This document shows positions 27,174 to 49,867 of a stretch of 64,000 nt of DNA, in pieces (within the stretch, counting starts at the first letter, position 1; each line of letters opens with the position of its first letter). The notes beneath the pieces are model-generated. The model was not told where the DNA came from, searched no databases, and was given only the letters and a program-made list of their open reading frames with translations. This DNA is from Planctomycetota bacterium (GTDB taxonomy: Bacteria > Planctomycetota > UBA1135 > UBA2386): contig OZ245838.1 in the NCBI GenBank assembly GCA_965228735.1, positions 5,984,001 to 6,048,000 of the forward strand. Direction: 5' to 3'. The position numbers were made by a program, and so were the translations under genes.

Positions 27174-27181
27174 CGCCGCGA

Positions 27182-27283: not shown

Positions 27284-27321
27284 CTTGGTCGGAGCAGTTG
27301 GGTTGGATGGGAGGGGGTCGG

Positions 27322-31900: not shown

Positions 31901-32391
31901 GTCGCGAAGTCGCACCGCCGCAGCATGTCGTTGATCATGCCCTGCAGGCCGAGCTCGCGGCCGTCGTCGGGCGAGTAGATCCGCGCGATGCCGTAGTCGT
32001 GCAGCGCTTGGATCTCGTCGGGCAGGATGACCCCGCCACCGCCGCCGAAGATCTGCACGTGGCCGGCACCGCGCTCCGCCAGCATGTCGAACATGTAGCG
32101 GAAGAACTCGTTGTGGCCGCCCTGATAGGACGTCACGGCGATGCCCTGGGCGTCCTCGGCGATCGCCGCGTCGACGATCTCCTGGACCGAGCGGTTGTGG
32201 CCGAGGTGGATGACCTCGGCGCCGGACGCCTGGGCGATGCGGCGGAAGATGTGGATCGAGGCGTCGTGACCGTCGAACAGGCTCGTGGCCGTGACGAGTC
32301 GAACTTTGTGCCTCAGGGTAAGCGGGCCGTCCGCGGGGCCGTCGGATTCGGCCTGGTCCGCGGGGCGTTGCGGCGAAGCTGCAGAAGTCAC
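28984..32391 (-). CDS. icmF: Fused isobutyryl-CoA mutase / MeaB-like GTPase
   Basis: N-terminal B12 domain [16 protein letters not shown]-loop; [11 protein letters not shown] mutase motif with Phe; GQYRRNM C-terminus; 1135 aa. Confidence 0.95.
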
Positions 32392-32415: not shown

Positions 32416-32832
32416 CTACTCGGTCGCTGCTTCCTCGGGCGCGAGCGGCGAGAAGTGCTGCGCGACGATCTTCCAGTCATCGCTCATCCGGCAGAGCGAG
32501 AACGTGCACATGCCGCTCTGCTCGTGGGCCCGCCCCTCGGGGTCGATCTGAGCCATCTTCCAGCCGCCCACGGCCGTCGCGAACTGGTCGTCGAAGACCT
32601 GGTAGTCCATGTCCTTGAGCTCGAGCTTGACCGAGTCGAGGTAGCGGAACTCCTGGTCGAGCACCTCCTCGAACGCGCCCCAGCCGCGGTCCTGCCGCCC
32701 GCTGGCATCGAGGTTACGGAAGCGCTTGTCGGTCCAGTAATGCGAGCGGAACGTCTTCAGGTCGCGGCTGTTGAACGACTGCCGCATGCTGCGGAAGAAT
32801 TCGTCCATCTCCTTCATGCTCTCGACGCTCAT
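32416..32832 (-). CDS. NTF2/SnoaL-like (DUF4440-type) protein
   Basis: 138 aa; helix then beta sheet ending WKIVAQHFS; no signal peptide. Confidence 0.7.
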   Translation of the reverse strand: MSVESMKEMDEFFRSMRQSFNSRDLKTFRSHYWTDKRFRNLDASGRQDRGWGAFEEVLDQEFRYLDSVKLELKDMDYQVFDDQFATAVGGWKMAQIDPEGRAHEQSGMCTFSLCRMSDDWKIVAQHFSPLAPEEAATE

Positions 32833-32935: not shown

Positions 32936-34309
32936 TCAGCGCTCGATGTGACGGAAAAGCGGGTCCTTCGACTTCTCGTAGACGACCTTGCCGTTCACAA
33001 GGGCCGTTTCCACGAAGGTCGCATAGTGCAGCGGGTCGCCGTCGAGAATCAAGACGTCCGCGTCCTTGCCGGCCTCGAGCGACCCGACCCGGGCCTCGGC
33101 GCCGATTGCTCGCGCCGCATCCAAAGTGATCGTTCGCAAGGCCTTACGGTTATCGAGGCCGCCGCGCACGGCGTAGGCCGCATCGACGTGCGGGGTGTTG
33201 AGGTCCTGCCCGAGGATGCCGCCCGTGCCGACCGACGCGCCGCCGAAGCGCCCGCTCGGGGCCGTGACGGCGACGGGCACACCGGCCTGGCTGAGGATCG
33301 CGGCGCTCGCGAGGTTGGTGCCCGTGGTGTCCGGCTTCTTCGGGTCCGGCGCGGTCCGGTTGCGCGGGTTGAGCACGACCATCGACCCGGTCGCCGCGAT
33401 CTCGTCGGGCACGAGCCACGCGCTCATCGGGTTGTTGAGCACGACGCCCTTGCCGAACAGCTCGCTGACCCTGAGCGCCTGGCGGATCGCGTCGACGTCG
33501 CTGCCGTCACCGCCGCCGCCGCCCATCATCCGGCGGAAGCGCGCCATCCGGTCGCCGAGCTCGATCCACAGGCGCTTCTTGCCCTGCAGCACGGCGACGA
33601 TGTTCTCCGTGCCCCGCGGCACGCGCGGCTCCTTGGCCTTGGGATCCTTCGTCTTCTTGGCCGGGTACTCCGCCAGCTCGGTCAGGTACTCCTTCGCCTG
33701 TTCGACCTGCTGCGTGAGCTTGCCCCAGTCCGCGAGGCTCAGCGGCACGTTCATCGCGACCACGCTGTTCTCCTCGAGCACCATGCCGTCGACGTCGCCC
33801 CACGCGAGTTTGGCGATCGCGTTCGTGCCGCTCGGGGTCGAGCCGCCGCCCGCGCCGCCGACGAGGAACGACGTGATGCCCGCCGCGAGGCCCTGCTTCA
33901 TCTGCGGGTCGTAGGGGTTGCTGCCGTCCTTGAACGGCGCGCGGCGCGCGGCCCCCATACCCGAGCCGGCGACCGCGACGAAGCCCGGCGCGACCGTCTT
34001 GCCCTTGGCGTCGATCGTCGTGCACTTCTCGGGCAGTTCGAGGTCGTGGCCGACGGCTTCGATCTTGTCGTCCGCGATCAGCACGGTCGCGCCCGTGAGC
34101 CGCTGGCCCGTGCCGAGGTAGACGTCGCCGCCGACGATGGCGGTGTATTCCTTGGGCTTCTTCGCCTCGTCCTTCTTCTCGGGCTCGGCAGCCGGCGGTG
34201 CTGCGGGTGCCGGCGCGCGCATGCGGCCGCGGCGGCCGCGGCCCTGGCCCGGAAGGTCGGCGATGGTCGCGAGCGTGATCGTCGCGGCGAGGAGGAGCTG
34301 GATGCGCAT
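32936..34309 (-). CDS. Secreted amidohydrolase-superfamily protein 9, metal ligands degenerate
   Basis: IDAKGKTVAPGFVAVAGS (no HxH); GSLEAGKDADVLILDGDPL; start MRIQLL. Confidence 0.85.
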   Translation of the reverse strand: MRIQLLLAATITLATIADLPGQGRGRRGRMRAPAPAAPPAAEPEKKDEAKKPKEYTAIVGGDVYLGTGQRLTGATVLIADDKIEAVGHDLELPEKCTTIDAKGKTVAPGFVAVAGSGMGAARRAPFKDGSNPYDPQMKQGLAAGITSFLVGGAGGGSTPSGTNAIAKLAWGDVDGMVLEENSVVAMNVPLSLADWGKLTQQVEQAKEYLTELAEYPAKKTKDPKAKEPRVPRGTENIVAVLQGKKRLWIELGDRMARFRRMMGGGGGDGSDVDAIRQALRVSELFGKGVVLNNPMSAWLVPDEIAATGSMVVLNPRNRTAPDPKKPDTTGTNLASAAILSQAGVPVAVTAPSGRFGGASVGTGGILGQDLNTPHVDAAYAVRGGLDNRKALRTITLDAARAIGAEARVGSLEAGKDADVLILDGDPLHYATFVETALVNGKVVYEKSKDPLFRHIER

Positions 34310-34353
34310 TGGTGGGTCCTGCGGATGAACGTTTCTGGGCGGCTGGTGGCGGG

Positions 34354-35808
34354 CTACGGCTGCTTGCGTTCGACGGCGTGGCCGCGGAACCACACGGAGT
34401 CGATCTCGCTCGCGGGCGACAGCGGGTCTCCGGTGAACACGATGAGGTTGGCGTCCTTGCCGACCTCGAGCGTGCCGACGGACTCGTCGATGCCGAGCGC
34501 CTTCGCGGGCACGCGCGTGACGCCGGCGTAGGCGACGTCCTGCGGCAGGCCGCTGCGCACGAGCTCCATGAGGCGGAAGAACACGGACCGCGCGCTGCTG
34601 CTGTTGTCGCCGATCACGAAGCCGACCTCGACGCCCGCGTCGTGCAGCGTCCTGGCCGGGTGGGTGAGGTGACGCGACCGGCCCTTCGTCGAGAGAGCGG
34701 CCGGCAGCAGCACCGGGCAGTCGAGCTTCTTCACCTCGTCGAGCACGATGTCGAGCGTGCCCGAGTAGGGGTCGTGGCGCGTCGAGACGAGCGTGCGCGG
34801 GAACTCGAGCTCGGCGTCGATCGCGTTCTGCCAGTGCGCGAGGTCGGCGGCGGAGCCGATCTCGACGATCGCGCGCTTCTTGCCCTCGAGCAGGTCGGCG
34901 AGCACCTCGATGTTCGGGTCCTTCTTCTGCTGGCGCGTCGTCGGGCGCCGCGTCGGCTGCTTCGGCGGCTCCTTGCCCTCCGGCTTGGGAGTCGGCGTCG
35001 GCTTCGGCGTCGGCTTCGGACCGGGCTTCGGCGGCTCCTTCGTGTCGCCCTTCTTCTCGCCTGCCTTCTCGGCGGGCTTGTCGCCGTTCTTCTCGGCCGG
35101 CTTCTTCGCCTCCGGCTCTTGCGCGGGCTTGGGCTCCTCCTTGGGCTTGTTGCGTTCCTCGACGACCTTCTTGGCCTTGTCGAAGCTGTCCTTCAGCAGC
35201 TTCTTCGTGGCCGCGTCGCGCGCCATGCCGATCTGCAAGAACGCTTCACCGTCGGCAGTGAGCTCGCGGACGGTGGTGCCGTTCGGCGCGAGCACGGCGC
35301 CCGTGCCCGGGAACGCGTTGCCCGTCGGCGTGAGCGCGAGCGACGTCACGCCGGCTTCGAGCAGCTCGTGGAAGACCTTCTGCTTCGGGTAGAGCCCGTC
35401 GACGACGCGCGTCGCAGCTTTGTTGGCGGCGCGACTGCCGGACGAACGCATCGTAACGCCGCGGGGGAAGCCACGGCCGCGCCGGCTCGACCGTTGGACG
35501 AGATCCGGCTGCCCGCCGGACAGCCCCGCGCGCGAGTAGGCGCTCACGAGGCCCGGCATGATCGTCTTGCCCTCGGCGTCGACGATCTTCGCGCCTGCGG
35601 GCACCGTGGCGTCCGCGCCGACCGCCTCGATCTTGCCCTTGCGGATCACGAGCGTGCCCTGCTCGATCACCGGGCCGGCGACCGTGACGATGCGGGCGTT
35701 GGTGAACGCGACCGGGCGCCGGTCCTGGGCGCGCAGGGAATGCGGCAGCGCCGCGCAGAGTGCGGCGAACGCGAGAACGGGAAGGTGACAGTTGCGAACT
35801 CGGCTCAT
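34354..35808 (-). CDS. Secreted amidohydrolase-superfamily protein 8, degenerate, with Lys/Pro-rich insertion
   Basis: IMPGLVSAYSR (no HxH); GTLEVGKDANLIVFTGDPL; start MSRVRN with ATGA overlap. Confidence 0.85.
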   Translation of the reverse strand: MSRVRNCHLPVLAFAALCAALPHSLRAQDRRPVAFTNARIVTVAGPVIEQGTLVIRKGKIEAVGADATVPAGAKIVDAEGKTIMPGLVSAYSRAGLSGGQPDLVQRSSRRGRGFPRGVTMRSSGSRAANKAATRVVDGLYPKQKVFHELLEAGVTSLALTPTGNAFPGTGAVLAPNGTTVRELTADGEAFLQIGMARDAATKKLLKDSFDKAKKVVEERNKPKEEPKPAQEPEAKKPAEKNGDKPAEKAGEKKGDTKEPPKPGPKPTPKPTPTPKPEGKEPPKQPTRRPTTRQQKKDPNIEVLADLLEGKKRAIVEIGSAADLAHWQNAIDAELEFPRTLVSTRHDPYSGTLDIVLDEVKKLDCPVLLPAALSTKGRSRHLTHPARTLHDAGVEVGFVIGDNSSSARSVFFRLMELVRSGLPQDVAYAGVTRVPAKALGIDESVGTLEVGKDANLIVFTGDPLSPASEIDSVWFRGHAVERKQP

Positions 35809-37067
35809 CGGCAATCTCCGCTGCGGTAGATCAGACTTCCTTCGATGTAGACCTTGCTCGGTCCGATGCGCGGATCGAGCGGGTCGCCGGCCGTGACCTG
35901 GAAGTCGGCGTCCTTGCCGACGGTCAACGAACCGACGCGGTCGTCGAGGCCGATCTGTTGCGCCGGCACGAGCGTGACGGCACGAAGGGCGGCCTCGTAA
36001 GGCAGACCGAGGCGCGCGGCCATCGCCGCCTGCAGCTGCAGCTGCTCGGGCGGGATCACCGGCGCGTCGGTGTTGATGGACAGGTTGTGGCAGCCGGCTT
36101 CCCAGAACGCCTGGCACATGCCCTGCATGCGGCCGTAGCGGTCGAACTGGTACATGCGCGGGCCGAGGTTGATCGGCGTCTGCCATTCGGCGAGCGGGCC
36201 CGCCGCGATCCAGCCGTCGAACGAACCGTGCGACAGGATCATGCGGACGTCGAACACGCCCTGGAACATGCGGGCCGTCGCGACGCAGTCGCGCGCGCCG
36301 GCCGTGTGGATGAGCACGGGGACCTCGCCGTCGAACACCTTGCGCAGCTGCTCGAGCGTCGGGTCGAACTGCGGCGCCTCGCCCTTGCCGGCCCTGGCGT
36401 CGCGCCACGCGGTTGCGTAGTCGCGGCCCTTCTCGAGCGCCTGCGTGAGGAGCTCGCTGCTGCCCATGCGCGTCTGGCCGAGATCGCCGCTGTAGCGCTC
36501 CGGGTTGTAGCCCTGCGCGACCTTCATCGCGCCGAGCTCGCGGATGACCATGTCGTCGAGTCTGCTGCCCCAGCGCATCTTCATCAGCACGCCGAAGCCG
36601 CTGATGTTGGTGCCCGACCCCGGGATGAACAGCGTCGTCGTGACGCCGCCAGCGACGGTGCGCTGGATCATCTCGGTGTTGGGCTTGACCGTGTCGAGCG
36701 TGCGCAGCTCGGCGTTGATCGGCTGCACCATGTCGTTGATGTCGCCGCCGCCGCTGCTGACGTGGTGGTGCAGGTCGACGAAGCCAGGGCTGAGCCACTG
36801 ATCGCCGTGGTCGACGACCGTCGCGCCGGCCGGCAGCTTCGTCGTCGCCGCCGCGCCGACCGCGAGGATCTTGCCGTCCTGCTCGACGAGCACGCCGTCG
36901 TCGATCGGGGCGCGGTCGATCGGCAGGATGCGCGCCGCGCGATGGATCGTGACGGGGCCCGAGCCGAGGCCCTCGCGTCCCGATTCCGCTGCCCGATCCT
37001 GCGTGCCCACGCCGGCCGCGAGAGCGGCGGCGACGGCGAGGGTGCGGATCGTGGTGGTGGCGGTCAC
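35805..37067 (-). CDS. Secreted amidohydrolase 7, full metal-ligand set
   Basis: PGFVDLHHH, MKVAQG, LIHT, LSHG, INTDAP. Confidence 0.9.
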   Translation of the reverse strand: MTATTTIRTLAVAAALAAGVGTQDRAAESGREGLGSGPVTIHRAARILPIDRAPIDDGVLVEQDGKILAVGAAATTKLPAGATVVDHGDQWLSPGFVDLHHHVSSGGGDINDMVQPINAELRTLDTVKPNTEMIQRTVAGGVTTTLFIPGSGTNISGFGVLMKMRWGSRLDDMVIRELGAMKVAQGYNPERYSGDLGQTRMGSSELLTQALEKGRDYATAWRDARAGKGEAPQFDPTLEQLRKVFDGEVPVLIHTAGARDCVATARMFQGVFDVRMILSHGSFDGWIAAGPLAEWQTPINLGPRMYQFDRYGRMQGMCQAFWEAGCHNLSINTDAPVIPPEQLQLQAAMAARLGLPYEAALRAVTLVPAQQIGLDDRVGSLTVGKDADFQVTAGDPLDPRIGPSKVYIEGSLIYRSGDCR

Positions 37068-37103
37068 GTGCCTTGGTGCTGAGGGGTGGGGGCTCGGGAG
37101 CGG

Positions 37104-38528
37104 TTACCAGACGGGGCGCTTGCTGTCGCGGCGGTAGCAGATCGTCCCACTTACGACCATGAGCTCGACGTGCGAGCGCGGATCGAGCGGGTCGCCGCTC
37201 CAGACGCCGATGTCGGCGTCCTTGCCGACGGTGAGCGAGCCGACGCGGTGGTCGATGCCGCCCATCTTCGCGGCGTTGATCGTCAGACCGCGCAGGGCCC
37301 ATTCGTGCGGCAGGCCGAGGCGCACGGCCATCGCGGCCTGCAGCGTGAGCTGTTCCTGCGCGACCACGGGAGAGTCGGTGTTGATCGAGATGCCGTCGCG
37401 GCCCACGCCGGGGACCGGGTCGCGCCAGCCGTGCTGACCGCCCATCGCCCAGTTGGCCGCGAGCCCCTCGATCTTGCCCGTGGCGCGATCGAAGTGGTAC
37501 TGGCGCGGTCCGTTCGCGATCGGCACACCGTGCTGGCGCATGTTGCCGCTGAGGCGGAACCCGTCGAACGTGCCGTGCACGACGACGGTCCAGAGGTCGA
37601 GCTCGAGGCGCAGCTCCTGCAGCGTCTGGAGGACGACCTGGTAGATCTGCGTGTGCACCGACACCGGGTACTCGTGGCGGAAGAGGCCGGATACGAGCTC
37701 GAGCGTCGGGTCGAACTTGGGCTTGTCGCCCTCGCCGCGTTCCGCCGCGAGCGTCTGCAGCCAGTAGTCCCGGCCGCGCACGAGCGTCTGACGGATGCCG
37801 TCGCTCATGCCCATCATGCCGTAGCCGAGGTCGCCGCTGCGCCGCTCGGGGTTGCCGGCCTGCGCGATCTTGAGGCTGCCGGGGAAGCGCACGAGCGCCT
37901 CGTCCGGGCTCTTGCCCCAGGTCTTGGTGATGGTGCCGAAGCCACCCATGTTGGAGCCCGACCCCGGGATGTAGAGCGCGCAGCTCACCCCGCCCGCGCG
38001 CGCGGCGCGGAACTGGTCGTGTTCCATGCTGATGAGATCGAGGGTGCGGAACTCGGGGTTCGTCGCGTGCACCGTGTCGTTGAGGTCGAAGCTCTCGCTC
38101 GCGACGTGACAGTGCATCTCGACGAGACCCGGGACGATCATCGCGTCATCGCAGTCGATGAGCTGGTAGCCCGCGGGCACCGGCGTCTCGTCGTAGGTGC
38201 CGATCGCCTCGATGATGCCGTTCTTCGTGACGACGACGCCGTCGAGGATCGGCGGCGCCGTGACGGGGATCACCTTGGCCGCGCGAAAGACGTAGCCGGG
38301 GCTCGGCAGCCCGCGCGGACCCCACTTCGCGACCTTGTAGTCGGCCTCCGTCTTCGGGCGGCGGGGGTAGTAGATCTCGAACGGCTTCGGTTCGGCCTGC
38401 TGCTCGACCGTCCGTTCGGTCGGCGCAGCGGGAGGCGCGGTCGCCCTCTCGTCCTGCGCGAACAGGCCGGGGGTGAGCAGCGCAGCGCAGGGCAGGACGG
38501 CGGCAGCGAGAGAACGGATACGCATCAT
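37104..38528 (-). CDS. Secreted amidohydrolase 6, full metal-ligand set
   Basis: PGLVEMHCH, LKIAQAGNP, SVHT, VVHG, INTDSP; start MMRIRS with ATGA overlap. Confidence 0.9.
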   Translation of the reverse strand: MMRIRSLAAAVLPCAALLTPGLFAQDERATAPPAAPTERTVEQQAEPKPFEIYYPRRPKTEADYKVAKWGPRGLPSPGYVFRAAKVIPVTAPPILDGVVVTKNGIIEAIGTYDETPVPAGYQLIDCDDAMIVPGLVEMHCHVASESFDLNDTVHATNPEFRTLDLISMEHDQFRAARAGGVSCALYIPGSGSNMGGFGTITKTWGKSPDEALVRFPGSLKIAQAGNPERRSGDLGYGMMGMSDGIRQTLVRGRDYWLQTLAAERGEGDKPKFDPTLELVSGLFRHEYPVSVHTQIYQVVLQTLQELRLELDLWTVVVHGTFDGFRLSGNMRQHGVPIANGPRQYHFDRATGKIEGLAANWAMGGQHGWRDPVPGVGRDGISINTDSPVVAQEQLTLQAAMAVRLGLPHEWALRGLTINAAKMGGIDHRVGSLTVGKDADIGVWSGDPLDPRSHVELMVVSGTICYRRDSKRPVW

Positions 38529-41407
38529 TGCTTGCTCCGGTGATCGACGACCACGCGGCCGTTGCAGACGACGAGCAGCACGCGGCTCTGCGGCTCGAAG
38601 GGGTTGCCCGAGAACACGACGAAGTCCGCGTCCTTGCCCTTCTCGAGCGAGCCGACGCGATCCGCGATGCGGAACGCCTCGGCCGGCCAGAGTGTCAGCG
38701 CCTTGAGCGCGTCCGCGGGGCTCAGGCCGTAGCGCACGGCGTAGGCCGCGTGCATCGGCAGGTGGCGCGCGCCCTTGCACTCGCCGCTGCCGAACAGCAC
38801 GGGCTGACCGCGGTCGGCGAGAACCGCCGGCTTGTTCTGCAGCTGGCCCTTCTCGTCCTCGGTCACGACGACCGGGCCGACGATGACGGGCGGGTTCTTG
38901 CCGTTGCCGATCGCCTGATCGTCGACGAGGTCGCGCACGCCCTGCAGCACGTAGGAGATCTCCTCCTTCTCGAGCAGGTCGATCACGTCGCGCGTCGCCG
39001 CGCCGCGGTTCGTCACGACGACGAGAGCCGCGCGCTTCTCGAGCACGGCGCGGATCGGTTCGAGGTTGTGGTCGACCTTGGGCGCCTCGGGCTTGTCCGA
39101 CTTCGCTTCCTCGGCCTCCTTCGCGATGGCCTCGACCTTGCTCGGCTTGCCCTGGCTCGTGCGCTTGGCGGCGAAGTCCTGCTCGCCGAGACGGCCGAGC
39201 GAGATCTTGCCGCTCATCGACTCGCCGTTGATCGTGGCTTCGATCTTGGCGTCGCCGCCGCGGCCCATGCCGGCGAACTCGAGCACGAGCTTGCCGCCCT
39301 GGAACGAGCCGGAGTTGATCGGGCGCGGCTGCATGCGGCGGCCGCCGAAGCCGACGCTGATGTTGCCCGTGACCTTCGTGCCCTGACGCTCGAGCTCGAG
39401 GATCAGCTTGAGCTGGATCTGGCCGCGGATGTCGATGTCGGCCTCCCAGGTGCCGGTGACGGCGTCGGCGGTCTCGCCGGCGTCCTTCTCACCTTCGCCG
39501 GTCTTGTCGCCCTGCTTCGCGGCGGCCTGCTCGGCGGCCGGCTTCTCGGCGCTCGCTGTCGCGGTGCCGTCCTGCTTCTGCTGCCACTCGGCGAGCGCCT
39601 TCTCGTAGTCCTGCCACTTCTTGACGTAGGCCTTGCCGCGGTCGAGCTGCGACTTGACCGCGTTGATCGCGCCCGGGCCGATCGCGTCGTGCTGCATGCG
39701 CACGCCGGCGATCTCCCGCACGACGAGGCCGGCGCGGTCCTTGGCGCCGGTCTTGACCGCGGTCACGCGGTGCGGCGTCGCGCCGCGATCCTTGCCGGAC
39801 GCGAGCACGGTCGTCAGACCCTCCGCGAGCGCGCCCTCGAACATCGGGTCGTCGTACTCGATCGCTTCGTCGAGCCTGGCTGCGGCGGTGCCGCTCGGCA
39901 CGCCCTGGCCGTCGCCGGCGAGGCCGAGGTGCGAGAACGCGTCGACGAAGCCGGGCGTCATGACCGCCTCGCCGAGATCGATGACCTCGGCGCCGTAGGG
40001 CACCGCGAGCTCTTCGCCGACGGCCTTGATGCGACCGTCCTGCACGATGATCGTGCCGTCGCGGTAGACGCGGCCCGTCGCATCGAGGATCCGGCCGCAG
40101 CGCACGGCGAGCACCGCGCGCGTCGGCGACGGTTCGCGCTCGAACATCCGTTCGCCGCCGATCCAGGTCGACTCGACCATCGTGCCGACGGCGAGCGGGT
40201 CGCCGCTGAGGATCACGAAGTCGGCGTCCTTGCCGGCCGCGAGCGTGCCGACGCGATCGTCGACGCCGAGGATCGCGGCCGCGTCCGCGCCGATGGCGCG
40301 CAGCGCGTGTTCGCGCGACAGCCCGTGGCGCACCGCGATCGCGACCGCCATGAGGTAGTCGCGCGCCGAAACGCCGGGGGCGGGGCACAGGCCGATCTTC
40401 ATCCCGGCCGCCGCGGCCTTGGCCGGCGCGTCTGGCCGCGCTTCGAGCGTCTCCTGCTGGCGGTCCTCACCGCCCGGGTTGCGCTGGCCGAAGCGCACCG
40501 GCACGCGGAACGTCGCCGCGACCTGCTGGCCGGCGGCGCGCTCGGCGATCGGGCCGATGTGCTGCGGGTCCTCGAGCACCATCGTCAGCCCGAGCTCCTT
40601 CTGCAGCTCGAGCGCGCGGTGGATGTCGTAGGTCTTGACCGCGGCCGCGCGCACGCGCAGCTTGCCGGTCGCGGCATCGCGGATCGCGGACTCGTCGTAG
40701 AGATGCTCGGCCGGGCCCTCACCGCCGAGGCCGACGTCCTCGGCCTTGCTCGCCGCGGCTTCCGCGAACAGCGCGCGCAGCTCCGGCAGCACGGCGATGC
40801 GCGCCGTTGGCGTCTGGATGCGCGAGGGCTGCAGCGGCTCGTCGCTCGTCGGGAACGGGTTCGGCTCGAACACGCGGGGCGCGCGCACCGAGCTGTCGCC
40901 GAAGTCGACGCGCAGGCAGTTGGCGTCGTCGAGCACGCGCTCGACGATGTCGTCACCGGCCGTCTTCACGACCGCGCCCTGACCCGAGATCAGGCGCTGC
41001 CGCCCGGGTGACAGGTAGAGCGTCGTGACGCCGCCGGCGAGCTCGGCGCGGCGCCTGCGCTCGAAGTCGAACGCGTCGAGCGCGAGCGCGTCGGGCGTGA
41101 CCTGGTACTCGGAGTCGGCGGCGCCGCTGAGGTCGCTGTCGACCGCGACGATGCCGGGCATCACGACCTTGTCGCGCGCGTCCGTGACGGGCACGTTCGC
41201 GGGCGGCGCGGTCTTGCCGATGCTCTTGATCTTGCCGTTCTCGACGACGAGCCAGACGTCCTGCATGGCCGTCTTGCCGTCGCCGGTCAGCAACGTGCCG
41301 CAGCGGATCGCGCGCGCGCCGGTCTCGCCCTGCGCCGGCAGGAAGCCGGCGAGGGTGAGCAGCGCGGCCGTCGCCGCCGCCTGGAAGCGGAAGGAATGGA
41401 ATCGCAT
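38525..41407 (-). CDS. Secreted tandem two-domain amidohydrolase-superfamily protein 5, both domains degenerate, with inserted beta domain
   Basis: PGIVAVDSD and PGFVDAFSH; two GKDADF..SG[D/N]P C-terminal motifs; 960 aa. Confidence 0.85.
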   Translation of the reverse strand: MRFHSFRFQAAATAALLTLAGFLPAQGETGARAIRCGTLLTGDGKTAMQDVWLVVENGKIKSIGKTAPPANVPVTDARDKVVMPGIVAVDSDLSGAADSEYQVTPDALALDAFDFERRRRAELAGGVTTLYLSPGRQRLISGQGAVVKTAGDDIVERVLDDANCLRVDFGDSSVRAPRVFEPNPFPTSDEPLQPSRIQTPTARIAVLPELRALFAEAAASKAEDVGLGGEGPAEHLYDESAIRDAATGKLRVRAAAVKTYDIHRALELQKELGLTMVLEDPQHIGPIAERAAGQQVAATFRVPVRFGQRNPGGEDRQQETLEARPDAPAKAAAAGMKIGLCPAPGVSARDYLMAVAIAVRHGLSREHALRAIGADAAAILGVDDRVGTLAAGKDADFVILSGDPLAVGTMVESTWIGGERMFEREPSPTRAVLAVRCGRILDATGRVYRDGTIIVQDGRIKAVGEELAVPYGAEVIDLGEAVMTPGFVDAFSHLGLAGDGQGVPSGTAAARLDEAIEYDDPMFEGALAEGLTTVLASGKDRGATPHRVTAVKTGAKDRAGLVVREIAGVRMQHDAIGPGAINAVKSQLDRGKAYVKKWQDYEKALAEWQQKQDGTATASAEKPAAEQAAAKQGDKTGEGEKDAGETADAVTGTWEADIDIRGQIQLKLILELERQGTKVTGNISVGFGGRRMQPRPINSGSFQGGKLVLEFAGMGRGGDAKIEATINGESMSGKISLGRLGEQDFAAKRTSQGKPSKVEAIAKEAEEAKSDKPEAPKVDHNLEPIRAVLEKRAALVVVTNRGAATRDVIDLLEKEEISYVLQGVRDLVDDQAIGNGKNPPVIVGPVVVTEDEKGQLQNKPAVLADRGQPVLFGSGECKGARHLPMHAAYAVRYGLSPADALKALTLWPAEAFRIADRVGSLEKGKDADFVVFSGNPFEPQSRVLLVVCNGRVVVDHRSKQ

Positions 41408-41411
41408 CGGA

Positions 41412-42725
41412 CTACTTGTTGTCCTCGCCGCTCTTGTTGTCGCCGTCCGGGCCGCCGCCCTTCTTCTCCTTGTCCTGCTCGTCGCCGAACAGGTACTGGA
41501 GGCGCGGGTCCTTGTCGCGTTCGTAGACGACGCTGCCGTCGAGCAGCACCGTGTCGACCCACGTCGTGGCCTCGAACGGATCGCCCGTGAGCACCTGCAG
41601 GTTGGCGACCTTGCCGACCTCGATCGTGCCGACCTGGTCCTCCAGACCGAGGATCTTCGCGGGCACGACCGTCAGCGCCTCGAGGGCCTGGCGGCGCGAC
41701 AGACCGTTGCGCACGCACGTGCCGAGCTGCCACCACGGGTAGCTCGTCGGGCCGCTCGAGCCGAGCGTCAGCGCGAACGGCACGCCGGCGTCCGCGAGCA
41801 GCTTCGCGACGCAGATCTTCTTCTGCTCGCGCGTCTCCTCGTCGGTCTCGCGGTACTCGATGTTGTCGTCGAGGATCATCGGCATCTCGAAGCGCGCGAG
41901 CTTGCTCGCGGCCTCGTCCACGTCGCGACCGAGCACGATCTGCAGGTCGAGTTCCTGCGACAGGCGCAGCGCTTCACCGACCTCGGCGTAGGACGGCACG
42001 TAGAGCCAGCCCTTGGCCTTTTTTTCGACGAGCTTCGCGGCGGCCTTCTTCGTCCGGTCGTACTCCTCGTCCCACTCCTTGTCCGCGGGCTCGGCGCCGG
42101 CCTTCTTGGCGTCCTCGAACTCCTGCTTGCGGCGTTCGAAGTCGGCGATGTACTCGCGCACGTCGGCCAGCGCGCGGCGCAGCTCCCGGATCTGCTGCAG
42201 GCGCCGGCCGCGCTGGTTCATCAGCGACACCTTGATGCCGGTGTTGGCCGCGACCGTCATGTCCTCGATCGTCTTGCCGAACGGCTTCAGGACCATGCCC
42301 GAGCCGCCGAGCAACGTGCTGTTGCCGGGCTGCACGTGGACCGTGCCGACGCCGTTGCGCAGCGCGTCCTCGAAGTAGGTCGACGCCGGGTCGACCGCGT
42401 CGGCGACCGATAGCCACGGCACGTTCTGCATGCTCTCGTTGCTGCCGCGCATGCCGCCCGTGCCGTGCGCGATGACCCACGTCGGCATGACGACCTTGTC
42501 CGAGGCGTCGACGACCGTCGCCGTCCACGGGATCTCGACCTCGGTCGCCTTGCTGATCTGCTTGATGCGGCCGTTCTCGATCAGGATGACGCTGTTCTCG
42601 AGCGCCGGCCCGCTGACCGTGAGGATCTTGCCGGCCTTGACGGCGACCATGTCCTGCGCCGCGGCGGGTGCGGCGCACAGGGAGACCACCGCGCTGATCG
42701 CGGTGAGGGTGAGGAGCTTGTTCAT
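41412..42725 (-). CDS. Secreted amidohydrolase-superfamily protein 4, degenerate
   Basis: VMPTWVIAHGT (one His only); GTIEVGKVANLQVLTGDPF. Confidence 0.85.
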   Translation of the reverse strand: MNKLLTLTAISAVVSLCAAPAAAQDMVAVKAGKILTVSGPALENSVILIENGRIKQISKATEVEIPWTATVVDASDKVVMPTWVIAHGTGGMRGSNESMQNVPWLSVADAVDPASTYFEDALRNGVGTVHVQPGNSTLLGGSGMVLKPFGKTIEDMTVAANTGIKVSLMNQRGRRLQQIRELRRALADVREYIADFERRKQEFEDAKKAGAEPADKEWDEEYDRTKKAAAKLVEKKAKGWLYVPSYAEVGEALRLSQELDLQIVLGRDVDEAASKLARFEMPMILDDNIEYRETDEETREQKKICVAKLLADAGVPFALTLGSSGPTSYPWWQLGTCVRNGLSRRQALEALTVVPAKILGLEDQVGTIEVGKVANLQVLTGDPFEATTWVDTVLLDGSVVYERDKDPRLQYLFGDEQDKEKKGGGPDGDNKSGEDNK

Positions 42726-43948
42726 CGGGAGGTGTGGACCGGTTGACCGTCGACGTGGACCGAGACGGGGGTGGCCGTGGGGTGAAGGGGATCGTGGGAC
42801 CAGACGACGAAGTCGGCGTCCTTGCCCGTGGCGAGGCTGCCGACGCGATCGTCGATGCCGAGGAGGCGGGCGGGGAGGATCGTCACCGCGTCGAGCGCGA
42901 GCTCGGGCGCGATGCCGTTGCGCGCGGCGAACATCGCCTCACGCACGAGGTCGAGCGCTTCGGGGTTGGTACCCGTCGTGATGACGAACGGGATCTTGCG
43001 GTCGGCGAGCTTGGACACGGTCGCGCCGCGCGGGTCGGCACCGTCGCGCCCGGCCGTGCCGGCGACACGCTCCGCGCTCGGGGCGCCGAGCAGCACAGTG
43101 ACCTCGGCCTTCTGCAGCTCGTCGAGGACGTAGTAGGCGTCCTGCGCGTCGTCGATGACGGTCTTGTAGCCGAACTCTTCGGCGAGACGCAGCGCGGTGC
43201 GGATGTCCTGCTCGCTGCGCGCGGTCGTGAACGCCGTGAGGTTGCCGGCGAGGACGCGTTTCAGCACCTCCATGCCGGGGCTCGGCGTCGGGTCGCCGCC
43301 GTCGAGCGTGTTCTCCTCCTTGGCCTGGAAGAACGCCTGCCGCGCGGCCCACACGACGCCCATGCGGGTCGTCGGCCGGCGGTAGTAGATCGAGTCGATG
43401 CGGCCGCCGCGGATCGCGCGGTTGCCGAGCGACGGTTCGCTGCCCATGACGAGACGCATGCTGGCCTCGCGATCGAGGATCATCTTGCTCGGGCTGCTGC
43501 CGAACGTCTTGATCGCGCAGCCGAGACCGGAGATCACGTTGCGCGTCCCGGGCATCACGTGCACGGTCGTCACGCCGGCCTCGCGGGCCCGGACGAACGC
43601 CGGATCCTCGGGGTCGATCGCGTCGAGCGCGCGCATGTGCGGCGTGACCTCCTCGCTCTGCTCGTTGAGGTCGGTGTAGTCGACGCTGATCTGAAACGAC
43701 GCGTCGACGAGGCCCGGCGTGATCACCTGACCCGCGCAATCGACCGTGACGGCGCCGTCGGGGATCGGCGTCGAAGCACCGCCGACGGCCTGGATCTTGC
43801 CGCCGGCGACGATGAGCACGCCGTCAGCGATCGGCGCGCCGCCGCCCGGCATGATCGTCGCACCCTTGTAGACCGTCACACGGTCCTGCGCGGCGAGCGG
43901 ACTCGCGACGACAGCGGCGAGGAGAACGGACAGAACGGGCGAACGCAT
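42722..43948 (-). CDS. Secreted amidohydrolase-superfamily protein 3, degenerate
   Basis: PGLVDASFQ; PTTRMG; GSLATGKDADFVVWSHDPL; start MRSPVL with TGATG overlap. Confidence 0.85.
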   Translation of the reverse strand: MRSPVLSVLLAAVVASPLAAQDRVTVYKGATIMPGGGAPIADGVLIVAGGKIQAVGGASTPIPDGAVTVDCAGQVITPGLVDASFQISVDYTDLNEQSEEVTPHMRALDAIDPEDPAFVRAREAGVTTVHVMPGTRNVISGLGCAIKTFGSSPSKMILDREASMRLVMGSEPSLGNRAIRGGRIDSIYYRRPTTRMGVVWAARQAFFQAKEENTLDGGDPTPSPGMEVLKRVLAGNLTAFTTARSEQDIRTALRLAEEFGYKTVIDDAQDAYYVLDELQKAEVTVLLGAPSAERVAGTAGRDGADPRGATVSKLADRKIPFVITTGTNPEALDLVREAMFAARNGIAPELALDAVTILPARLLGIDDRVGSLATGKDADFVVWSHDPLHPTATPVSVHVDGQPVHTSR

Positions 43949-45120
43949 CAGCGGGTTTCCTCGGAGGTCTTGGTCTGGTTGGCGCGCTTCGACTCGGAGC
44001 CGCGCAGCAGCGTGCCGTCCACCCAGCACGCGACGTGCGCGCTGTGCAGGTCGAGCGGGTGACCGCTCCACACGTTGAAGTCGGCGGCGCAACCGCGGCG
44101 CAGCGCGCCGACCGTCGCGGTCTGACCGAGCAGGTCGGCCGGCGTGCGGGTCAGCGCCTGCAGCGCGACGGCGCGATCGAGGCCGTGCCGCACGGCGAGT
44201 ACCGCGGACAGCCGCAGCTTGCTCGGGTCGCCCGCGAACGCGAACGGCACGCCGGCCGCGGCGAGCTCGGCGGGCAGGCGGAGCTGCTCGAGACGCATCT
44301 CGGGGCGCAGCGTCGACAGCACGATCGCGGCCTTCTGCGCCGCGATCCGGTCCATCACCTTCTTCGCCTCGGCGCCGCCGACGATGACGGGGCTGAAGCC
44401 GAACTCCTCGGCGAGGTCGAGCAGGCCCGACAGCTCGGTGTAGGTGTCGGCGTGCGCGAACACGCGGCGCGAGCCGTCGAGCACCTCGCGAACGATCGCG
44501 ACGGCGGGGCCGCCCTGCGTGCCCTTCTGCGCGTCGCCGAACACCGTGCGGAGCATCTCGAGCGCGCCGATCAGCGATGTCGGCGCGCGCTGCTGATCGC
44601 GCGCGACCTTGGCGATCGACAGCTGCAGGTGCAGCTCGCGTTCGGCGATGCGGCCCTGGGCGTCGTCGCCGCTCTTGCCCGGCTTGGCGAGCGCCGCGAG
44701 GCCGCCCGCGACGTTGCGCGGCGACGGCGACAGCGCGACCGACGTGATGCCGGCGTCCGGCAGCTCGTCGAGCTCGTCGTTCCACGGATCGAACGCTTCG
44801 GCGGCGAGCAGGTCGGGCGTGAAAGCGAACGCGGCCTCGGCGAGGTCGCCGTCCTGGCTCAGCGTCGACTGCGCGAGCACGAAGCCCGGCGTGATCGTCG
44901 CGTCGCCGTAGTCGAGGCGGCGGGCCGTGCGGCGCGCTTCCGCGGGGATCTCGTCGCCGAGGTAGAGGACCTTGCCGTCGCGCACGAGCAGCTGGCCCGG
45001 CGAGAGGACGGTGCCCGGCGCGACGACGATGCGCTGCGCCTGGATCAACAGGTCCTGCGCGTTCGCCGCGGCGGTCAGAACGCCGAGGGCGAGACAGAAG
45101 GAGGGAAGGGAGCGATGCAT
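43948..45120 (-). CDS. Secreted amidohydrolase-superfamily protein 2, degenerate
   Basis: PGFVLAQST; GALRRGCAADFNVWSGHPL; start 45120 or 45129. Confidence 0.85.
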   Translation of the reverse strand: MHRSLPSFCLALGVLTAAANAQDLLIQAQRIVVAPGTVLSPGQLLVRDGKVLYLGDEIPAEARRTARRLDYGDATITPGFVLAQSTLSQDGDLAEAAFAFTPDLLAAEAFDPWNDELDELPDAGITSVALSPSPRNVAGGLAALAKPGKSGDDAQGRIAERELHLQLSIAKVARDQQRAPTSLIGALEMLRTVFGDAQKGTQGGPAVAIVREVLDGSRRVFAHADTYTELSGLLDLAEEFGFSPVIVGGAEAKKVMDRIAAQKAAIVLSTLRPEMRLEQLRLPAELAAAGVPFAFAGDPSKLRLSAVLAVRHGLDRAVALQALTRTPADLLGQTATVGALRRGCAADFNVWSGHPLDLHSAHVACWVDGTLLRGSESKRANQTKTSEETR

Positions 45121-45131
45121 GACGAGCACGA

Positions 45132-46883
45132 TCAGTTGGCCTCGTATTCGGTGCGGCCCTTGCCGAGCACGAGCAGCACGCGGCTGTCGCTCTCGAACAA
45201 CGGTCGGTCGAAGATCACCACGTCGGCGAACTTGCCGCGGGTCAGCGACCCGGTGTCGCGGTTGATGCCGAGGATCTCGGCGGGGGTGAGCGTGATGGCG
45301 CGCAGCGCGGCGGCCGGGGCGAGGCCGCGGCCGACGGCCGTCGCGGCCATGAGCGGCAGCAGCGACGCGTGCCGCGCCTTGCCGGTCGCGATCGCGAACG
45401 GCACACCGGCCTTGTCGAGGTGCTGCGGTGCCGCGGCCGGATCGAACGCCTCGTAGAGCTTCGGCATGCTGCTCGGCAGCACGTCCGTCAGCACGACCGT
45501 CGCGCCGGCTTCGCTGATGGTCTCGGCGAGCTGGGCGACGCCGTAGGCCTGCTCGAGCACGAGCAGCGGCACTTCGGCCGCGCGCTGCAGCGCGAGCGCG
45601 GCGCGCAGTTCGTCCGGGCGGTGGGCTTCGACGCGCAGCGGCATCTCGCCTTCGAGGACCGCGAGCAGGGCTTCCTTCGTCGGGTCTTCCTTGACCGGCT
45701 TGGGGTAGGTCGGGCGCTTCGGCGCCTCGTCCTTCTTCGCGGCCGGCTTCTGGTCGTCGCCCTTCTTGTCGCCGGCTCCCTGCGCGGGCTTCTCGCCCTC
45801 ACCCTGCGGCGGCTTGCCCTGCGGGTCCTGCGCCGTCGCGGCGGGCTCGGCTGCGAGCAGCTCGAGCATCTCGAAGAACGCGGCCTCGAACTCGGGCGAC
45901 GCCAGCAGCTCTTCGCCGTTCATCGCGTTGCCGCCACCGGGTGGGCCGCCGCGCCGGCGCCGGCCATCGGCGCCGCCGGCGTTGCCCGGCCGGTTGCCGC
46001 CGCCGCGGCGTGCGTTACCGGACTCGCTGCCGCCGTCCTTGCCGTCCTCGGCCTTCTTCTTGGCCTTGTTCTTCTCGTGCCACTCGAGCCACTTCTTGAA
46101 GTCCTCGGCGTACTTGTCGAGGTCCTTGTTGTACTTCTGCTTGGCCTCTTCGTACTTGTCGAGACCGTCGAACGTCTTGAGCAGCGCGTCGAGTTGCTGC
46201 TGCCGCGCGAGCGCATGGGTCGGCACCGGACCGCGCGTCATGCGCAGCTGCACCGCGGCCTTGCTCTTGTCCTCCCACACCTCGAAGCCGTCCTTCCGCG
46301 GCCGCACGATCGCGCCCTGCCCTGCCGGCGCGCTCACGTAGGCGACCGTGATCCCCGCCGCCGCGAGCGCGTCGTCACGCGTGTGCCGCAGCTGCAGGTC
46401 GTCGGCGAGCGCCATGCCCGCGTCGAGCTGTCCGGTCTGCGTCGCGGGATCGGTGAACGCGTCGGTCTCGGCGTCGATCAGGCCCGGGTAGACGTGCCCC
46501 GCGGGGAACGCCCGCACGGTCGCGCTCTCCGGGATCTCGACCTCGCCCTGCTTGCCGACCGCGAGGATGCGCTCGCCGCGAATCAGCACGACGCCGTTCT
46601 CGATCGCCGGACCGCTGACCGGGTGCACGTGGCCAGCGGTGATCGCGATGACGGGCTGGCGGCGGCTGCCCCGACCTTGGCGACCGGGACCCTGGCGACC
46701 AGCTCGGTTCCCGCGGCGGTTGCCGCCCTGGCGACCCGGGTCCTGGGCCCCGGCCCGCTCGGTGCCGGCCCGTTCGGATTTCGGCGCGGGTTCGGGTTCC
46801 TGCGGTCGCACCACTGATCTGGCCGGCAGACCCAGGGTCGAAAGGAGGAACAGGACAGGGAAGTGCCAGGGAATCCTGCGCAT
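45132..46883 (-). CDS. Secreted amidohydrolase-superfamily protein 1, degenerate, with long low-complexity insertion
   Basis: PGLIDAETD (ExD replaces HxH); GSLTRGKFADVVIFD; start MRRIPW. Confidence 0.85.
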   Translation of the reverse strand: MRRIPWHFPVLFLLSTLGLPARSVVRPQEPEPAPKSERAGTERAGAQDPGRQGGNRRGNRAGRQGPGRQGRGSRRQPVIAITAGHVHPVSGPAIENGVVLIRGERILAVGKQGEVEIPESATVRAFPAGHVYPGLIDAETDAFTDPATQTGQLDAGMALADDLQLRHTRDDALAAAGITVAYVSAPAGQGAIVRPRKDGFEVWEDKSKAAVQLRMTRGPVPTHALARQQQLDALLKTFDGLDKYEEAKQKYNKDLDKYAEDFKKWLEWHEKNKAKKKAEDGKDGGSESGNARRGGGNRPGNAGGADGRRRRGGPPGGGNAMNGEELLASPEFEAAFFEMLELLAAEPAATAQDPQGKPPQGEGEKPAQGAGDKKGDDQKPAAKKDEAPKRPTYPKPVKEDPTKEALLAVLEGEMPLRVEAHRPDELRAALALQRAAEVPLLVLEQAYGVAQLAETISEAGATVVLTDVLPSSMPKLYEAFDPAAAPQHLDKAGVPFAIATGKARHASLLPLMAATAVGRGLAPAAALRAITLTPAEILGINRDTGSLTRGKFADVVIFDRPLFESDSRVLLVLGKGRTEYEAN

Positions 46884-47220
46884 GTGGCCGGGCGATCGGG
46901 GTCTAGCGGGGGGCCGCTGGTGCGGCGCGGGGGGCCCCGCATTTACGGCGACGGGACGATGGTCTGCCAACCCTTTTTGCAGGCCCCGGTGCAACTTGGG
47001 TGTCGCGGGGCCGCCGGGCGGCAATTGTGCGGTGCGACGGAAGGTCGGACCGTCACAGTCAACCGTTGCCCATCGGCGGCACCCTGAGGCACGACAACCA
47101 CTTCGAAGTCATCGTCATCGGGCCCAGGATGGGCGGTAAACCGCTGATAAGGGTAAGATCGCCGGCGTTCTGGTGACGACCGGAGCCGGACCCGCGGACG
47201 CAGCGGGAAGAGAGTCGCCC

Positions 47221-49647
47221 ATGCGTAACACCGTCTCGATGTCCACCTGCCTCTTTGCGCTTCTGGCCTCGGCCCAGGCGCAATCGACGCTGCAGTGGCA
47301 GCCAGGATCCGCCATTCCAGGACCGATCGATGGCTACGGTCTCGCCCTCGTCGGCTGGGACCCTGACGGGTCGGGACCGCTCCCCGAGCGCATGGTGGTG
47401 GGTGGATCGTTCTTCGATGCCAGTGGTCAGGATCTGGGGACCGTCCTCGCCTTCGATCCGGCGGGGGTCAGCTGGACGTCGGTGTCGTTGGACAACTCGA
47501 CCGTTCGACAACTTGTGGTCCTGCCGAGCGGCGATCTCGTCGCTGCAGGCACGCTGTTCCTGCCCGGCACTACCACCAACATCGGTATTGCGTTCTGGGA
47601 CGGGCAAGGGTGGCAGGCTCTCGGTGGCGGCCGCAGCCGAACCGTCAGCGTCGTCACGCTCATGGCGAATGGTGACCTCGTTGCTGGTGGCGAAGCGCTC
47701 GAAGTCTGGGACGGTTCGGCGTGGAGCGTGATCCCGACGCCGATCGCCAACGCCAGCTCGTACTTGCCGCTCGCGCTGTCGAACGGCGATCTGGCCGTCG
47801 CCTTCGCCACCCCGACCGGTGCGTTCCTCGGCGTGCGGTCGGCCGCCGGTTGGCAAACCTGGGGCGCGTTCTCGACGCCGCCGATCGGCAGCTTCGTGTA
47901 CTCCATGGCCGCGTTGCCGAACGGCGACTTCGTCGTGGGCGGGGTCTTCGAAGCCGTTGGCGGCGTCGCCTCGCCCGATCTGATTCGGTTCCATCAGGGC
48001 GCTTGGGTGCCGTTGCCGCGGCCGGGTACGCACCGCGTGCCTGTACGCTTGTTCGCCCGCCCGGACGGCAGCGTGCTGATGGCGAACTACGCGGCAAGCG
48101 TGCTGCGGTGGGACGGCACCGATTGGATCTCGTTCGGCTCGCCGCTGTCGCAGATCGGCGCGTTCGGAGAGACCTCGACCGGTGAGCTGTTCGTCGCGGG
48201 TGGGTATTCGCACGATTTGGACGGCGTCGTGCGGCGCTACGACAGCGGCGCGTGGCGGCCGCTCGGGCACGGGTTCACGAGCCCGATCCTCGATCTCGAG
48301 GTCGACGCGCGCGGCGACCTGTTCGTTGCCGGAGAATTCGATCAGGCGGGTGACACGGCGGCGTTCGCGGTCGCGCGTCGTGACGCCGCCGGCTGGCACG
48401 CGCTGGGTGCAGGGCCGCGGAGTCCCGCGCAGACCGTTCTGCCGCTGACGAACGGGAACGTGGTGACGGGTACTTCGCACGGTGACGTCGAACTCTGGGA
48501 TGGCGCCCAATGGCGGACCATCGGGGATCTCGGCTACTACGCCGTCAAAGCCCTGATCGAACTCCCCAACGGCGACGTCGTCGCCGGCGGCAGGTTCAGC
48601 GCCACGGCGCGCCGCGTCGCGCGCTGGGACGGCTCCGCGTGGCACGCGCTCGGCACGGGGCTCGGTCCACCATTCAACGGTGGCGAGTACGATTCGGTCG
48701 AATGCCTGCTCGCGATGCCGAACGGTGATGTGATCGCGGGCGGCTACTTCAAGGACCCCAACAACAACAACCAACTCTGGAATATCGCGCGCTGGGACGG
48801 CAACAGTTGGGCGGCAGTCGGGCCGGGCATCGGCTCCGGGAACAGGGTCGTCGACCTCGCGTTGGCGCCGGATGGGAGCCTGCTCGCCGCGGTGAGGGGG
48901 GGATACAACCCGGGCATCCGGCGGTGGGACGGCACCGCCTGGTCGGCATTCGCAGTCGTCAACGACAACATCTTCGCGATCGACGTCCTGCCCAACGGCG
49001 ATCTCCTCGCAGGTGGCTCGTTCACCCAGATTGCCGGAGTCGCGGTTGCGGGGCTCGCGCGGTGGGACGGTAGCGTGTGGGCCGCGGTCGACCCGAGCGT
49101 CGGCCCAGTCGTCGAGGCGCTGGCGCACACGCCCGACGGCACGGTCCACGCCGCGACCCATATCGGCGCCTTCTGCTGCCGGCTCGAGATCCAAGGCGTC
49201 ATCACCCGGCACTACGCCACTCTGACGACGCAACTCCAGGCGCGCGCGGATCGGATACCGACGCCGTGCGTCGGCCCCGCCGGCCCTCTCGAGTTGACCG
49301 CGGCCGCGCTGCCGTGGATCGGCACGACGTTCCGTTCGACGGCGGCGGGCTTCGCGCCGGGAGCCCTGGCGCTCGCGATCGCCGGCACGGCGCCGCGCAA
49401 TCTGCCGCTGTCGCTGGTCTTGCCGAGTGCGCTACCCGGTTGCCACCAACTCGCATCGAGCGAAGTCGCCGCGTTCGCGATCCCGAGCGCCGGTGCCGCG
49501 TCGTTCGAGTTCGCCATTCCGAATACGATCGTCCTCGCACAGCTGCAGGCCTGGCACCAGTTCCTCCAACTCGAACTGACCCCTCAGGGCGTCCCCCTGA
49601 CTCTCAGCAGCAGCAACGGCCTGCACCTCGTCATTGGTGCGTTCTAG
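47221..49647 (+). CDS. Secreted beta-propeller repeat protein (ARWDG..W..LG repeats) with C-terminal beta-sandwich-like domain
   Basis: Repeats of V.AL...PNGD...GG.F...ARWDG..W; signal peptide AQA|Q; tail PWIGTTF...SNGLHLVIG. Confidence 0.75.
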   Translation: MRNTVSMSTCLFALLASAQAQSTLQWQPGSAIPGPIDGYGLALVGWDPDGSGPLPERMVVGGSFFDASGQDLGTVLAFDPAGVSWTSVSLDNSTVRQLVVLPSGDLVAAGTLFLPGTTTNIGIAFWDGQGWQALGGGRSRTVSVVTLMANGDLVAGGEALEVWDGSAWSVIPTPIANASSYLPLALSNGDLAVAFATPTGAFLGVRSAAGWQTWGAFSTPPIGSFVYSMAALPNGDFVVGGVFEAVGGVASPDLIRFHQGAWVPLPRPGTHRVPVRLFARPDGSVLMANYAASVLRWDGTDWISFGSPLSQIGAFGETSTGELFVAGGYSHDLDGVVRRYDSGAWRPLGHGFTSPILDLEVDARGDLFVAGEFDQAGDTAAFAVARRDAAGWHALGAGPRSPAQTVLPLTNGNVVTGTSHGDVELWDGAQWRTIGDLGYYAVKALIELPNGDVVAGGRFSATARRVARWDGSAWHALGTGLGPPFNGGEYDSVECLLAMPNGDVIAGGYFKDPNNNNQLWNIARWDGNSWAAVGPGIGSGNRVVDLALAPDGSLLAAVRGGYNPGIRRWDGTAWSAFAVVNDNIFAIDVLPNGDLLAGGSFTQIAGVAVAGLARWDGSVWAAVDPSVGPVVEALAHTPDGTVHAATHIGAFCCRLEIQGVITRHYATLTTQLQARADRIPTPCVGPAGPLELTAAALPWIGTTFRSTAAGFAPGALALAIAGTAPRNLPLSLVLPSALPGCHQLASSEVAAFAIPSAGAASFEFAIPNTIVLAQLQAWHQFLQLELTPQGVPLTLSSSNGLHLVIGAF

Positions 49648-49834
49648 GATTCACGCGAGACCTCCCCCAGCCTGCGCAACGCGTCCCGCCCCCCAGGCGC
49701 CGCCGATGCGGTTGTGGTAGGCCTTCGGGCCGCGGATTCCGGAACGCGGGCGGCGTCGACCGGGGCCGGGGGCCGGTGACGCGGCCCCGCTTGGCGCCGC
49801 CCGCGGCGGCGGCGAGAATCTCCGGGGATTGCCC

Positions 49835-49860
49835 GTCACGCCATGCCACGCGGCGGCGTC
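49835..49860 (+). promoter_or_regulatory. Putative autoregulatory ECF promoter GTCACG-N16-CGTC
   Basis: Motif ends 7 nt before the ATG at 49868; resembles the TGTCACA-N16-CGTC ECF promoter type. Confidence 0.45.
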
Positions 49861-49867
49861 CGGGCCC

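Follow-up and report, generated by a model that had tools for sequence, protein, structure and literature searches.

Eight conserved amidohydrolase pseudoenzyme barrels and one variable catalytic slot in an exported Planctomycetota array: a probable hetero-oligomer

CRMP proteins are pseudoenzymes of the amidohydrolase fold and form hetero-oligomers. Dead amidohydrolase barrels with a structural role are also known, singly, from enzyme complexes; the pseudo-dihydroorotase of Pseudomonas is reported to be a dead barrel needed to assemble an active complex (PMC7053772), and the AibH1 subunit of AibH1H2 to be a dead or structural barrel that its active complex requires (PMC12141560). All of these proteins are cytoplasmic, belong to other subfamilies and contribute one dead type per complex. 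Described here is an array of nine genes, g1 to g9 in order of transcription, found in a 64,000-nucleotide stretch of DNA (the window) from a Planctomycetota bacterium (contig OZ245838.1, positions 5,984,001 to 6,048,000). The array encodes ten amidohydrolase barrels, two active and eight dead. Its catalytic members are of the same family as its dead ones, unlike the pseudo-dihydroorotase, which scaffolds an unrelated enzyme.

The array belongs to the same family as PDB 3OOQ, an amidohydrolase of Thermotoga maritima MSB8 whose title gives no function. One sequence with a complete site makes up all ten chains of 3OOQ, whereas the array has nine barrel types, eight of them dead, and signal peptides. 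Characterised enzymes of COG1228/MEROPS M38 (Cc2672, Sgx9260b/c, PmAcy, isoaspartyl dipeptidase and the ochratoxin hydrolases) have the same fold and the same H-H-Kcx-H-H-D ligands (Kcx, carboxylated lysine). However, they are distant (profile E value 1e-21 or weaker) and homo-oligomeric; many of these nearest characterised relatives are octamers or dodecamers (PMC11511702).

The operon is real, ancient and selected: eight of its positions hold pseudoenzyme barrels, and the ninth is a variable catalytic slot, occupied in the window by g6 and g7. We infer an assembly, a stoichiometry and a substrate: the products probably form one periplasmic hetero-oligomer, in which eight scaffold barrels hold an exchangeable binuclear-metal amide hydrolase. 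The parts of the array are listed below; in the text, "=" marks barrels within one chain.

45132–46883, minus strand: g1, a dead barrel with DAETD at the HxH site and long charged insertions, the operon's first gene; site complete in 0 of 107 orthologues.
43948–45120, minus strand: g2, dead in the window (LAQST), a decaying second catalytic position; 4 of 113 orthologues have the whole site; GTG at 45129 as an alternative start.
42722–43948, minus strand: g3, a dead barrel (DASFQ) with a conserved signature of its own (NEQ, RRPxTRMG).
41412–42725, minus strand: g4, a dead barrel that retains the first His and the bridging Lys, with a conserved C-terminal tail.
38525–41407, minus strand: g5, two dead barrels head to tail (g5a, ~40130–41407; g5b, ~38525–40129) with a linker of ~8 residues.
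39140–39466, minus strand: an all-beta insert of ~100 residues inside g5b, past a long helix; no Pfam match.
37104–38528, minus strand: g6, an amidohydrolase of the catalytic slot with an intact binuclear-metal site (H139, H141, K220, H292, H318, D385).
35805–37067, minus strand: g7, a second intact slot enzyme (H100, H102, K182, H254, H280, D334), dispensable in relatives.
34354–35808, minus strand: g8, a dead barrel (SAYSR) with a Lys/Pro-rich insertion.
32936–34309, minus strand: g9, a dead barrel (AVAGS) with conserved motifs and a tail of its own, the array's last gene; alternative GTG start at 34393.

The nine open reading frames are consecutive on the minus strand (window 32936–46883), and the junction gaps from g1 to g9 are 11, −1, −4, 4, −4, 36, −4 and 44 bp. 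All nine proteins match Pfam PF01979/PF07969, which places them in the amidohydrolase superfamily, with its barrel and beta-sandwich fold. Paralogues are ~23–31% identical over full-length alignments (43% for the g6/g7 pair), and the whole set amounts to ~4000 residues. An earlier, sequence-only reading of this window had reported nine minus-strand amidohydrolase genes, their overlaps and short gaps, and dead copies that are full-length and strongly diverged; the coordinates, Pfam matches and alignments agree with it on each point.

The full ligand set (HxH, Lys, His, His, Asp) is present in the window only in g6 and g7, as had been read from the sequence, and alignment to the slot profile gives the same result. 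The eight dead barrels are held by seven genes, g5 being double, and the strings first quoted for their HxH sites (AVAGS, SAYSR, AVDSD, DAFSH, IAHGT, DASFQ, LAQST and DAETD) are correct. The six ligands were scored in related loci by alignment to the slot profile, and a profile–profile check on the first locus set agrees. All but one of the 181 slot barrels (180) have the full site, the exception being truncated by a contig end; among the 909 barrels of the other eight positions, 4 have it. Because all four complete copies lie at g2, this position is seen as a second catalytic one that has mostly decayed; L024 and L079 are loci with an intact g2. In g4 the first His is retained in 74 of 82 copies, and the Lys likewise in 74 of 82. 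Apart from g4, the ligand columns are variable within each dead class; every dead class nevertheless has conserved motifs of its own, richest in g3, g4 and g9.

In another member of the superfamily, Ala at any single one of the six ligands abolished activity (PMC13081902). For this reason the eight non-slot barrels are best read as pseudoenzymes. The predicted activity of the slot subunit (g6 or g7 in the window) is hydrolysis of an amide or a peptide bond by a binuclear metal centre. The closest characterised enzymes, those of COG1228/M38, suggest by analogy a peptide or N-acyl amino acid as the likely substrate (PMC11511702).

The layout was compared in relatives from the family, the order and the phylum. 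A first set of 83 loci, with three duplicates and seven non-array loci removed beforehand, contains 66 complete arrays and 17 that are split or truncated at a contig end. All 66 complete arrays have the order g1-g2-g3-g4-g5a=g5b-[slot]-g8-g9; in six of them the first barrel gave its best score, or nearly so, with another position and was called g1 by place. Of a second set of 40 loci, 35 are complete, and the eight non-slot barrels are in the same places in 35 of 35; nine of these arrays have a divergent barrel that scores best against another position's profile, two have one barrel in two pieces, and one has a stray 46-residue match. It should be pointed out that these counts come from related genomes and hence are not independent trials. 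The slot holds one gene in 56 of the 101 arrays, two in 33, three in nine and four in three, with one frameshifted and one remnant copy counted as genes. The sequence-only reading had supposed two catalytic genes made in a fixed ratio to the rest. This part is not supported as it stood: two is not the rule, since 56 of the 101 arrays have a single slot gene, and relatives may lack g7 or have it with a frameshift or as a remnant.

In one locus (L018) the spare active gene carries a frameshift, in another (L063) a 119-residue remnant of it is left, and the dead genes are whole in both. In ten locus pairs the ratio of nonsynonymous to synonymous substitution rates (dN/dS) is 0.17–0.63 for dead barrels and 0.18–0.36 for active barrels; these values are probably high, because a third-position GC content near 0.93 compresses dS. 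The dead copies, as judged from these ratios, are under purifying selection. Thus the earlier view of the dead set as old and maintained is upheld by one-to-one orthology at each position, with the same eight non-slot barrels and order in 101 complete arrays, and by dN/dS below 1 throughout; the dead copies are also exported and translationally coupled. None of the three outcomes that it had named as fatal was encountered (dead copies that are neutral or confined to this lineage; no hetero-interface predicted or observed; alternative complete metal sites in each copy).

A tree of 131 rows (quick LG+G4 search, no outgroup) was assessed with the Shimodaira–Hasegawa-like approximate likelihood ratio test (SH-aLRT). 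Seven dead positions each form one clade (SH-aLRT 96–100), g1 being unresolved, and all eight dead positions group together (support 90). The slot genes cluster with three stray single genes from other loci (support 100). Single intact slot-clade genes lie distant from the array in three array-bearing genomes (L029:8019-9227, L031:8579-9826 and L032:7091-8320), and these are candidates for plug-in catalytic subunits.

At E ≤ 1e-60, g6 has a match in 151 of the 151 genomes of the class. Among 251 genomes of the phylum, 77 have the slot clade, 71 have g9 and 70 have both, and 167 have no slot, g9 or g4 match. All 77 slot-clade genomes are also g4-positive, one by way of a cross-match, and in the single g9 genome that lacks a slot match g4 sits at a contig end. 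About 30% of the sampled Planctomycetota carry the exported hydrolase. Of 18 slot-clade loci in metagenomes, 15 have an array gene as neighbour and three are on contigs shorter than 3 kb. By record titles and cluster names the named matches point to Planctomycetota, bar single labels that may be binning errors, no systematic search of other phyla having been made. One genome (G197, listed contamination 5%) has two complete arrays on separate contigs (L127 and L128).

All nine N-termini in the window resemble Sec signal peptides, as first noted from the sequence. By a simple test a signal-peptide-like start is present in 500 of 594 array genes; internal windows, judged with a stricter single start, were positive in 58 of 2385 cases. 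A lipobox was found in 11 of the 594 genes, a twin-arginine translocation (Tat) motif in none, and no anchor domain was found in the array proteins.

PDB 3OOQ, a member of an uncharacterised amidohydrolase family, is the best PDB match by a wide margin for g3, g7 and the g5 model. E values are 3e-44 for g7, 4e-46 for g3 and 1e-83 for the slot profile, and the Foldseek template-modelling (TM) score of the g5 model is 0.86. The motifs NE/ND, PGS, NPxR and TRMG are common to array proteins and 3OOQ. All nine proteins score below the curated NCBIfam cut-offs, those of the named equivalogs HutI, Xaa-Pro dipeptidase, PhnM, NagA and dihydroorotase included; the best score is 114 bits, where 500 would be required. 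The metallo bile-salt-hydrolase preprints of 2026 were considered and set aside; they concern a different, 3ICJ-like subfamily. A full-text literature search, mostly without subscription papers, found no publication on the array or on the function of 3OOQ, nor any characterisation of the two- and three-barrel loci described next.

The same genome has two smaller relatives of the array, a three-barrel locus (dead=active plus dead; G000:C1:3099393-3103654, L027) and a two-barrel locus (active plus dead; G000:C1:5726253-5728750, L028). As in the array, intact barrels stand beside or are fused to dead ones; in contrast to its nine barrel types there are two or three, and the members fall in separate tree clades. 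By the HxH test, single chains among 240 long relatives are active=dead in 84 cases, dead=active in 105 and dead=active=dead in 38. The majority of the distant metagenome loci have one intact barrel with a start that, judged by eye, lacks a signal peptide. Low-GC gut contigs (L168, L170 and L171) contain four tandem intact family members without signal peptides, a separate all-active expansion.

Natural fusions are also found within arrays. The barrels g5a and g5b form a single chain in every array that has both. Fusions of g1=g2 are seen in L075, L118, L127, L136 and P0462, of g1=g2=g3 in L120, L122, L126 and L130, all of one genus, and of g8=g9 in L073 and P0494. No intact slot barrel is part of a fusion in the arrays or among 120 long relatives listed. 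Two kinds of apparent fusion were rejected: a g4=g5a fusion (L123) is an N-gap artefact, and in the slot=g8 joins of L018 and P0383 the slot barrel is truncated, so that they look like frameshift read-ins. A scheme of five fixed pairs (g1-g2, g3-g4, g5a-g5b, slot-slot and g8-g9) was also dropped, as its fusion support was gone once g2=g3 fusions appeared.

AlphaFold2 models g5 with a predicted local distance difference test score (pLDDT) of 91 and a predicted TM score (pTM) of 0.71, with ~45 disordered residues and the 100-residue insert. A natural active=dead fusion of a two-barrel sister system (P0266, from a Blastopirellula species) gives a pLDDT of 91 and a pTM of 0.90. Both models can be read as having a defined barrel-to-barrel packing, the interface itself not being visible in them. 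A complex prediction for g6 plus g8 scored 0.14 against a mark of 0.32, with no controls folded, and is not evidence either way.

In the proposed scheme, a homo-oligomeric 3OOQ-like ancestor would have been duplicated in tandem, each copy taking one non-interchangeable place in a ring. Catalysis would then have been lost at every place but one, g2 being the last to lose it. The metal-less subunits would be retained if each is needed to close the particle, and they might also shape the entry or bind substrate. The remaining place would hold one of several exchangeable, paralogous binuclear-metal hydrolases, and extra slot genes and stray slot-type genes could lend one scaffold different specificities. 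Place-specific subunits would account for a constant set of barrels, for the fusions and the coupling, and for the fact that spare active genes decay; they would also be the reason why each of the eight dead barrels is present just once as the slot gains and loses genes. The stoichiometry is likely to be 8+1 or its double, which fits the triple fusions, or 8+2, which fits the ten chains of 3OOQ; a decamer is possible. A bolder version, which we regard as falling just short of an even prospect, is a nine-barrel periplasmic ring or cage with eight pseudoenzyme places and one plug-in place for interchangeable enzymes, some of them encoded at other loci of the genome. Such a particle would stand at the end of a series of one, two, three and nine barrel types, with a complexity like that of the exosome or CCT, and the loss at g2 would be under way.

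Several points weigh against a single assembly, the support for which is all indirect. In two genomes of one genus (L076 and L134) a break after g5b puts g1-g5 and slot-g8-g9 at separate loci, and therefore co-transcription of all nine genes is not essential. The structure-level signals are the pTM values of covalent fusions only, one of them from a sister system, and these values may stem from resemblance to the 3OOQ structure in the training set. For 3OOQ itself the comparison covers the ten deposited chains. Covariation between positions in 96 arrays is dominated by shared ancestry, and a ring in gene order does no better than random orders (p ~0.6). Finally, the many conserved polar residues in g3, g4 and g9 are compatible with ligand binding of their own.

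This last point leads to the thought that the dead barrels are independent periplasmic proteins for binding, sensing or presenting substrate, co-regulated with the enzyme and not bound to it. The conserved residues of each dead class, the His and Lys of the old site kept by g4, and export itself all suit such a role. Independent proteins are, however, expected to vary in number and order by lineage, and an array constant in 101 cases disfavours them; no transporter or receptor gene is conserved nearby, and short-linker fusions and one-to-one coupling suit subunits better. The idea therefore appears quite improbable. An unlikely, somewhat less remote arrangement is a group of small heteromers (e.g. 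g1-g2-g3, g4-g5a-g5b and slot-g8-g9) like the two- and three-barrel sister systems. The g1=g2=g3 fusion, g2 having formerly been active, repeats the dead-active-dead pattern of the three-barrel sister; the natural split parts slot-g8-g9 from g1-g5; and fusions of g3=g4 or g5b=slot were not seen. Yet g1-g5 lacks a catalytic member in 109 of 113 cases and in the genomes searched is neither missing nor present by itself, and the tree does not show the array as three copies of a trimer.

The long insertions of g1, g5b and g8, helical or of low complexity, and the beta insert in g5b could also belong to a mainly structural filament, lattice or cage in the periplasm, to which the enzyme is merely attached, and head-to-tail fusions are compatible with a filament. 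A polymer does not need eight non-interchangeable types in a fixed ratio, and lipoboxes are rare and anchor domains were not found, so that this is very improbable in our view. Scarcely credible is the notion that the degenerate genes are duplicates in decay, or that they encode enzymes whose metal site is complete in an alternative form. It can draw on the few complete g2 copies and on the two ligands retained by g4; neutral decay is refuted by dN/dS below 1 throughout, the ligand columns vary within the dead classes other than g4, and single Ala changes abolish activity in the other superfamily member (PMC13081902). One mixed periplasmic particle thus remains the probable reading.

It is with such a particle that eukaryotic machines invite comparison. 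Rings of many paralogues with mostly dead subunits are textbook eukaryotic machines whose intermediate stages have been lost. In the 20S proteasome, the RNA exosome core, CCT and plastid ClpP/ClpR, a homomeric ancestor gave rise to many paralogues at fixed places, several or most of them inactive. These have unrelated folds, scattered genes and no export, and the likeness is one of design. No fold homology of the array to the proteasome, ClpP/ClpR or the exosome was found, the Pfam and PDB matches being to amidohydrolases only; the proteasome or ClpP/ClpR link is an analogy. Should the array products form one mixed particle, it would have a complexity known mainly from eukaryotes. One bacterial family shows a living series of single intact genes, active plus dead pairs, dead-active-dead triples and a nine-part operon, and within living genomes one position (g2) is still losing its site and the slot is still duplicating. 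Because of this series, the question of how a homomer becomes an entrenched heteromer, by adaptation or by a neutral ratchet, is directly testable. The genes are annotated today as nine ordinary amidohydrolases, and together they flag an unstudied exported hydrolase.

The flanks of the array are family-specific, and no gene for a transporter, a receptor or a pathway accompanies it throughout its range. The flanking genes give no clue to the substrate, and a promoter and terminator scan was at chance level. In the window, a SnoaL-like gene without a signal peptide (32416–32832, minus strand) lies 103 bp downstream of the array; such a gene adjoins 25 of 66 arrays, all of them from the family of the window or one related family. 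It is followed after 24 bp by an IcmF-like fusion (28984–32391, minus strand) with B12-binding, MeaB GTPase and mutase domains. The IcmF-like mutase is near the array in the window's own group; arrays elsewhere have other flanking genes. Farther downstream (25332–28758, minus strand) are a PaO/VanA-type Rieske oxygenase and then a long gene with a methyltransferase domain. Divergent from the operon, at 47173–49647 on the plus strand, is a gene for an 824-residue exported protein with many short beta repeats and weak Rax2/DUF5122 matches. It is followed at 49829–52204 (plus strand) by a sigma factor of the extracytoplasmic function (ECF) type, which has a C-terminal extension of ~600 residues.

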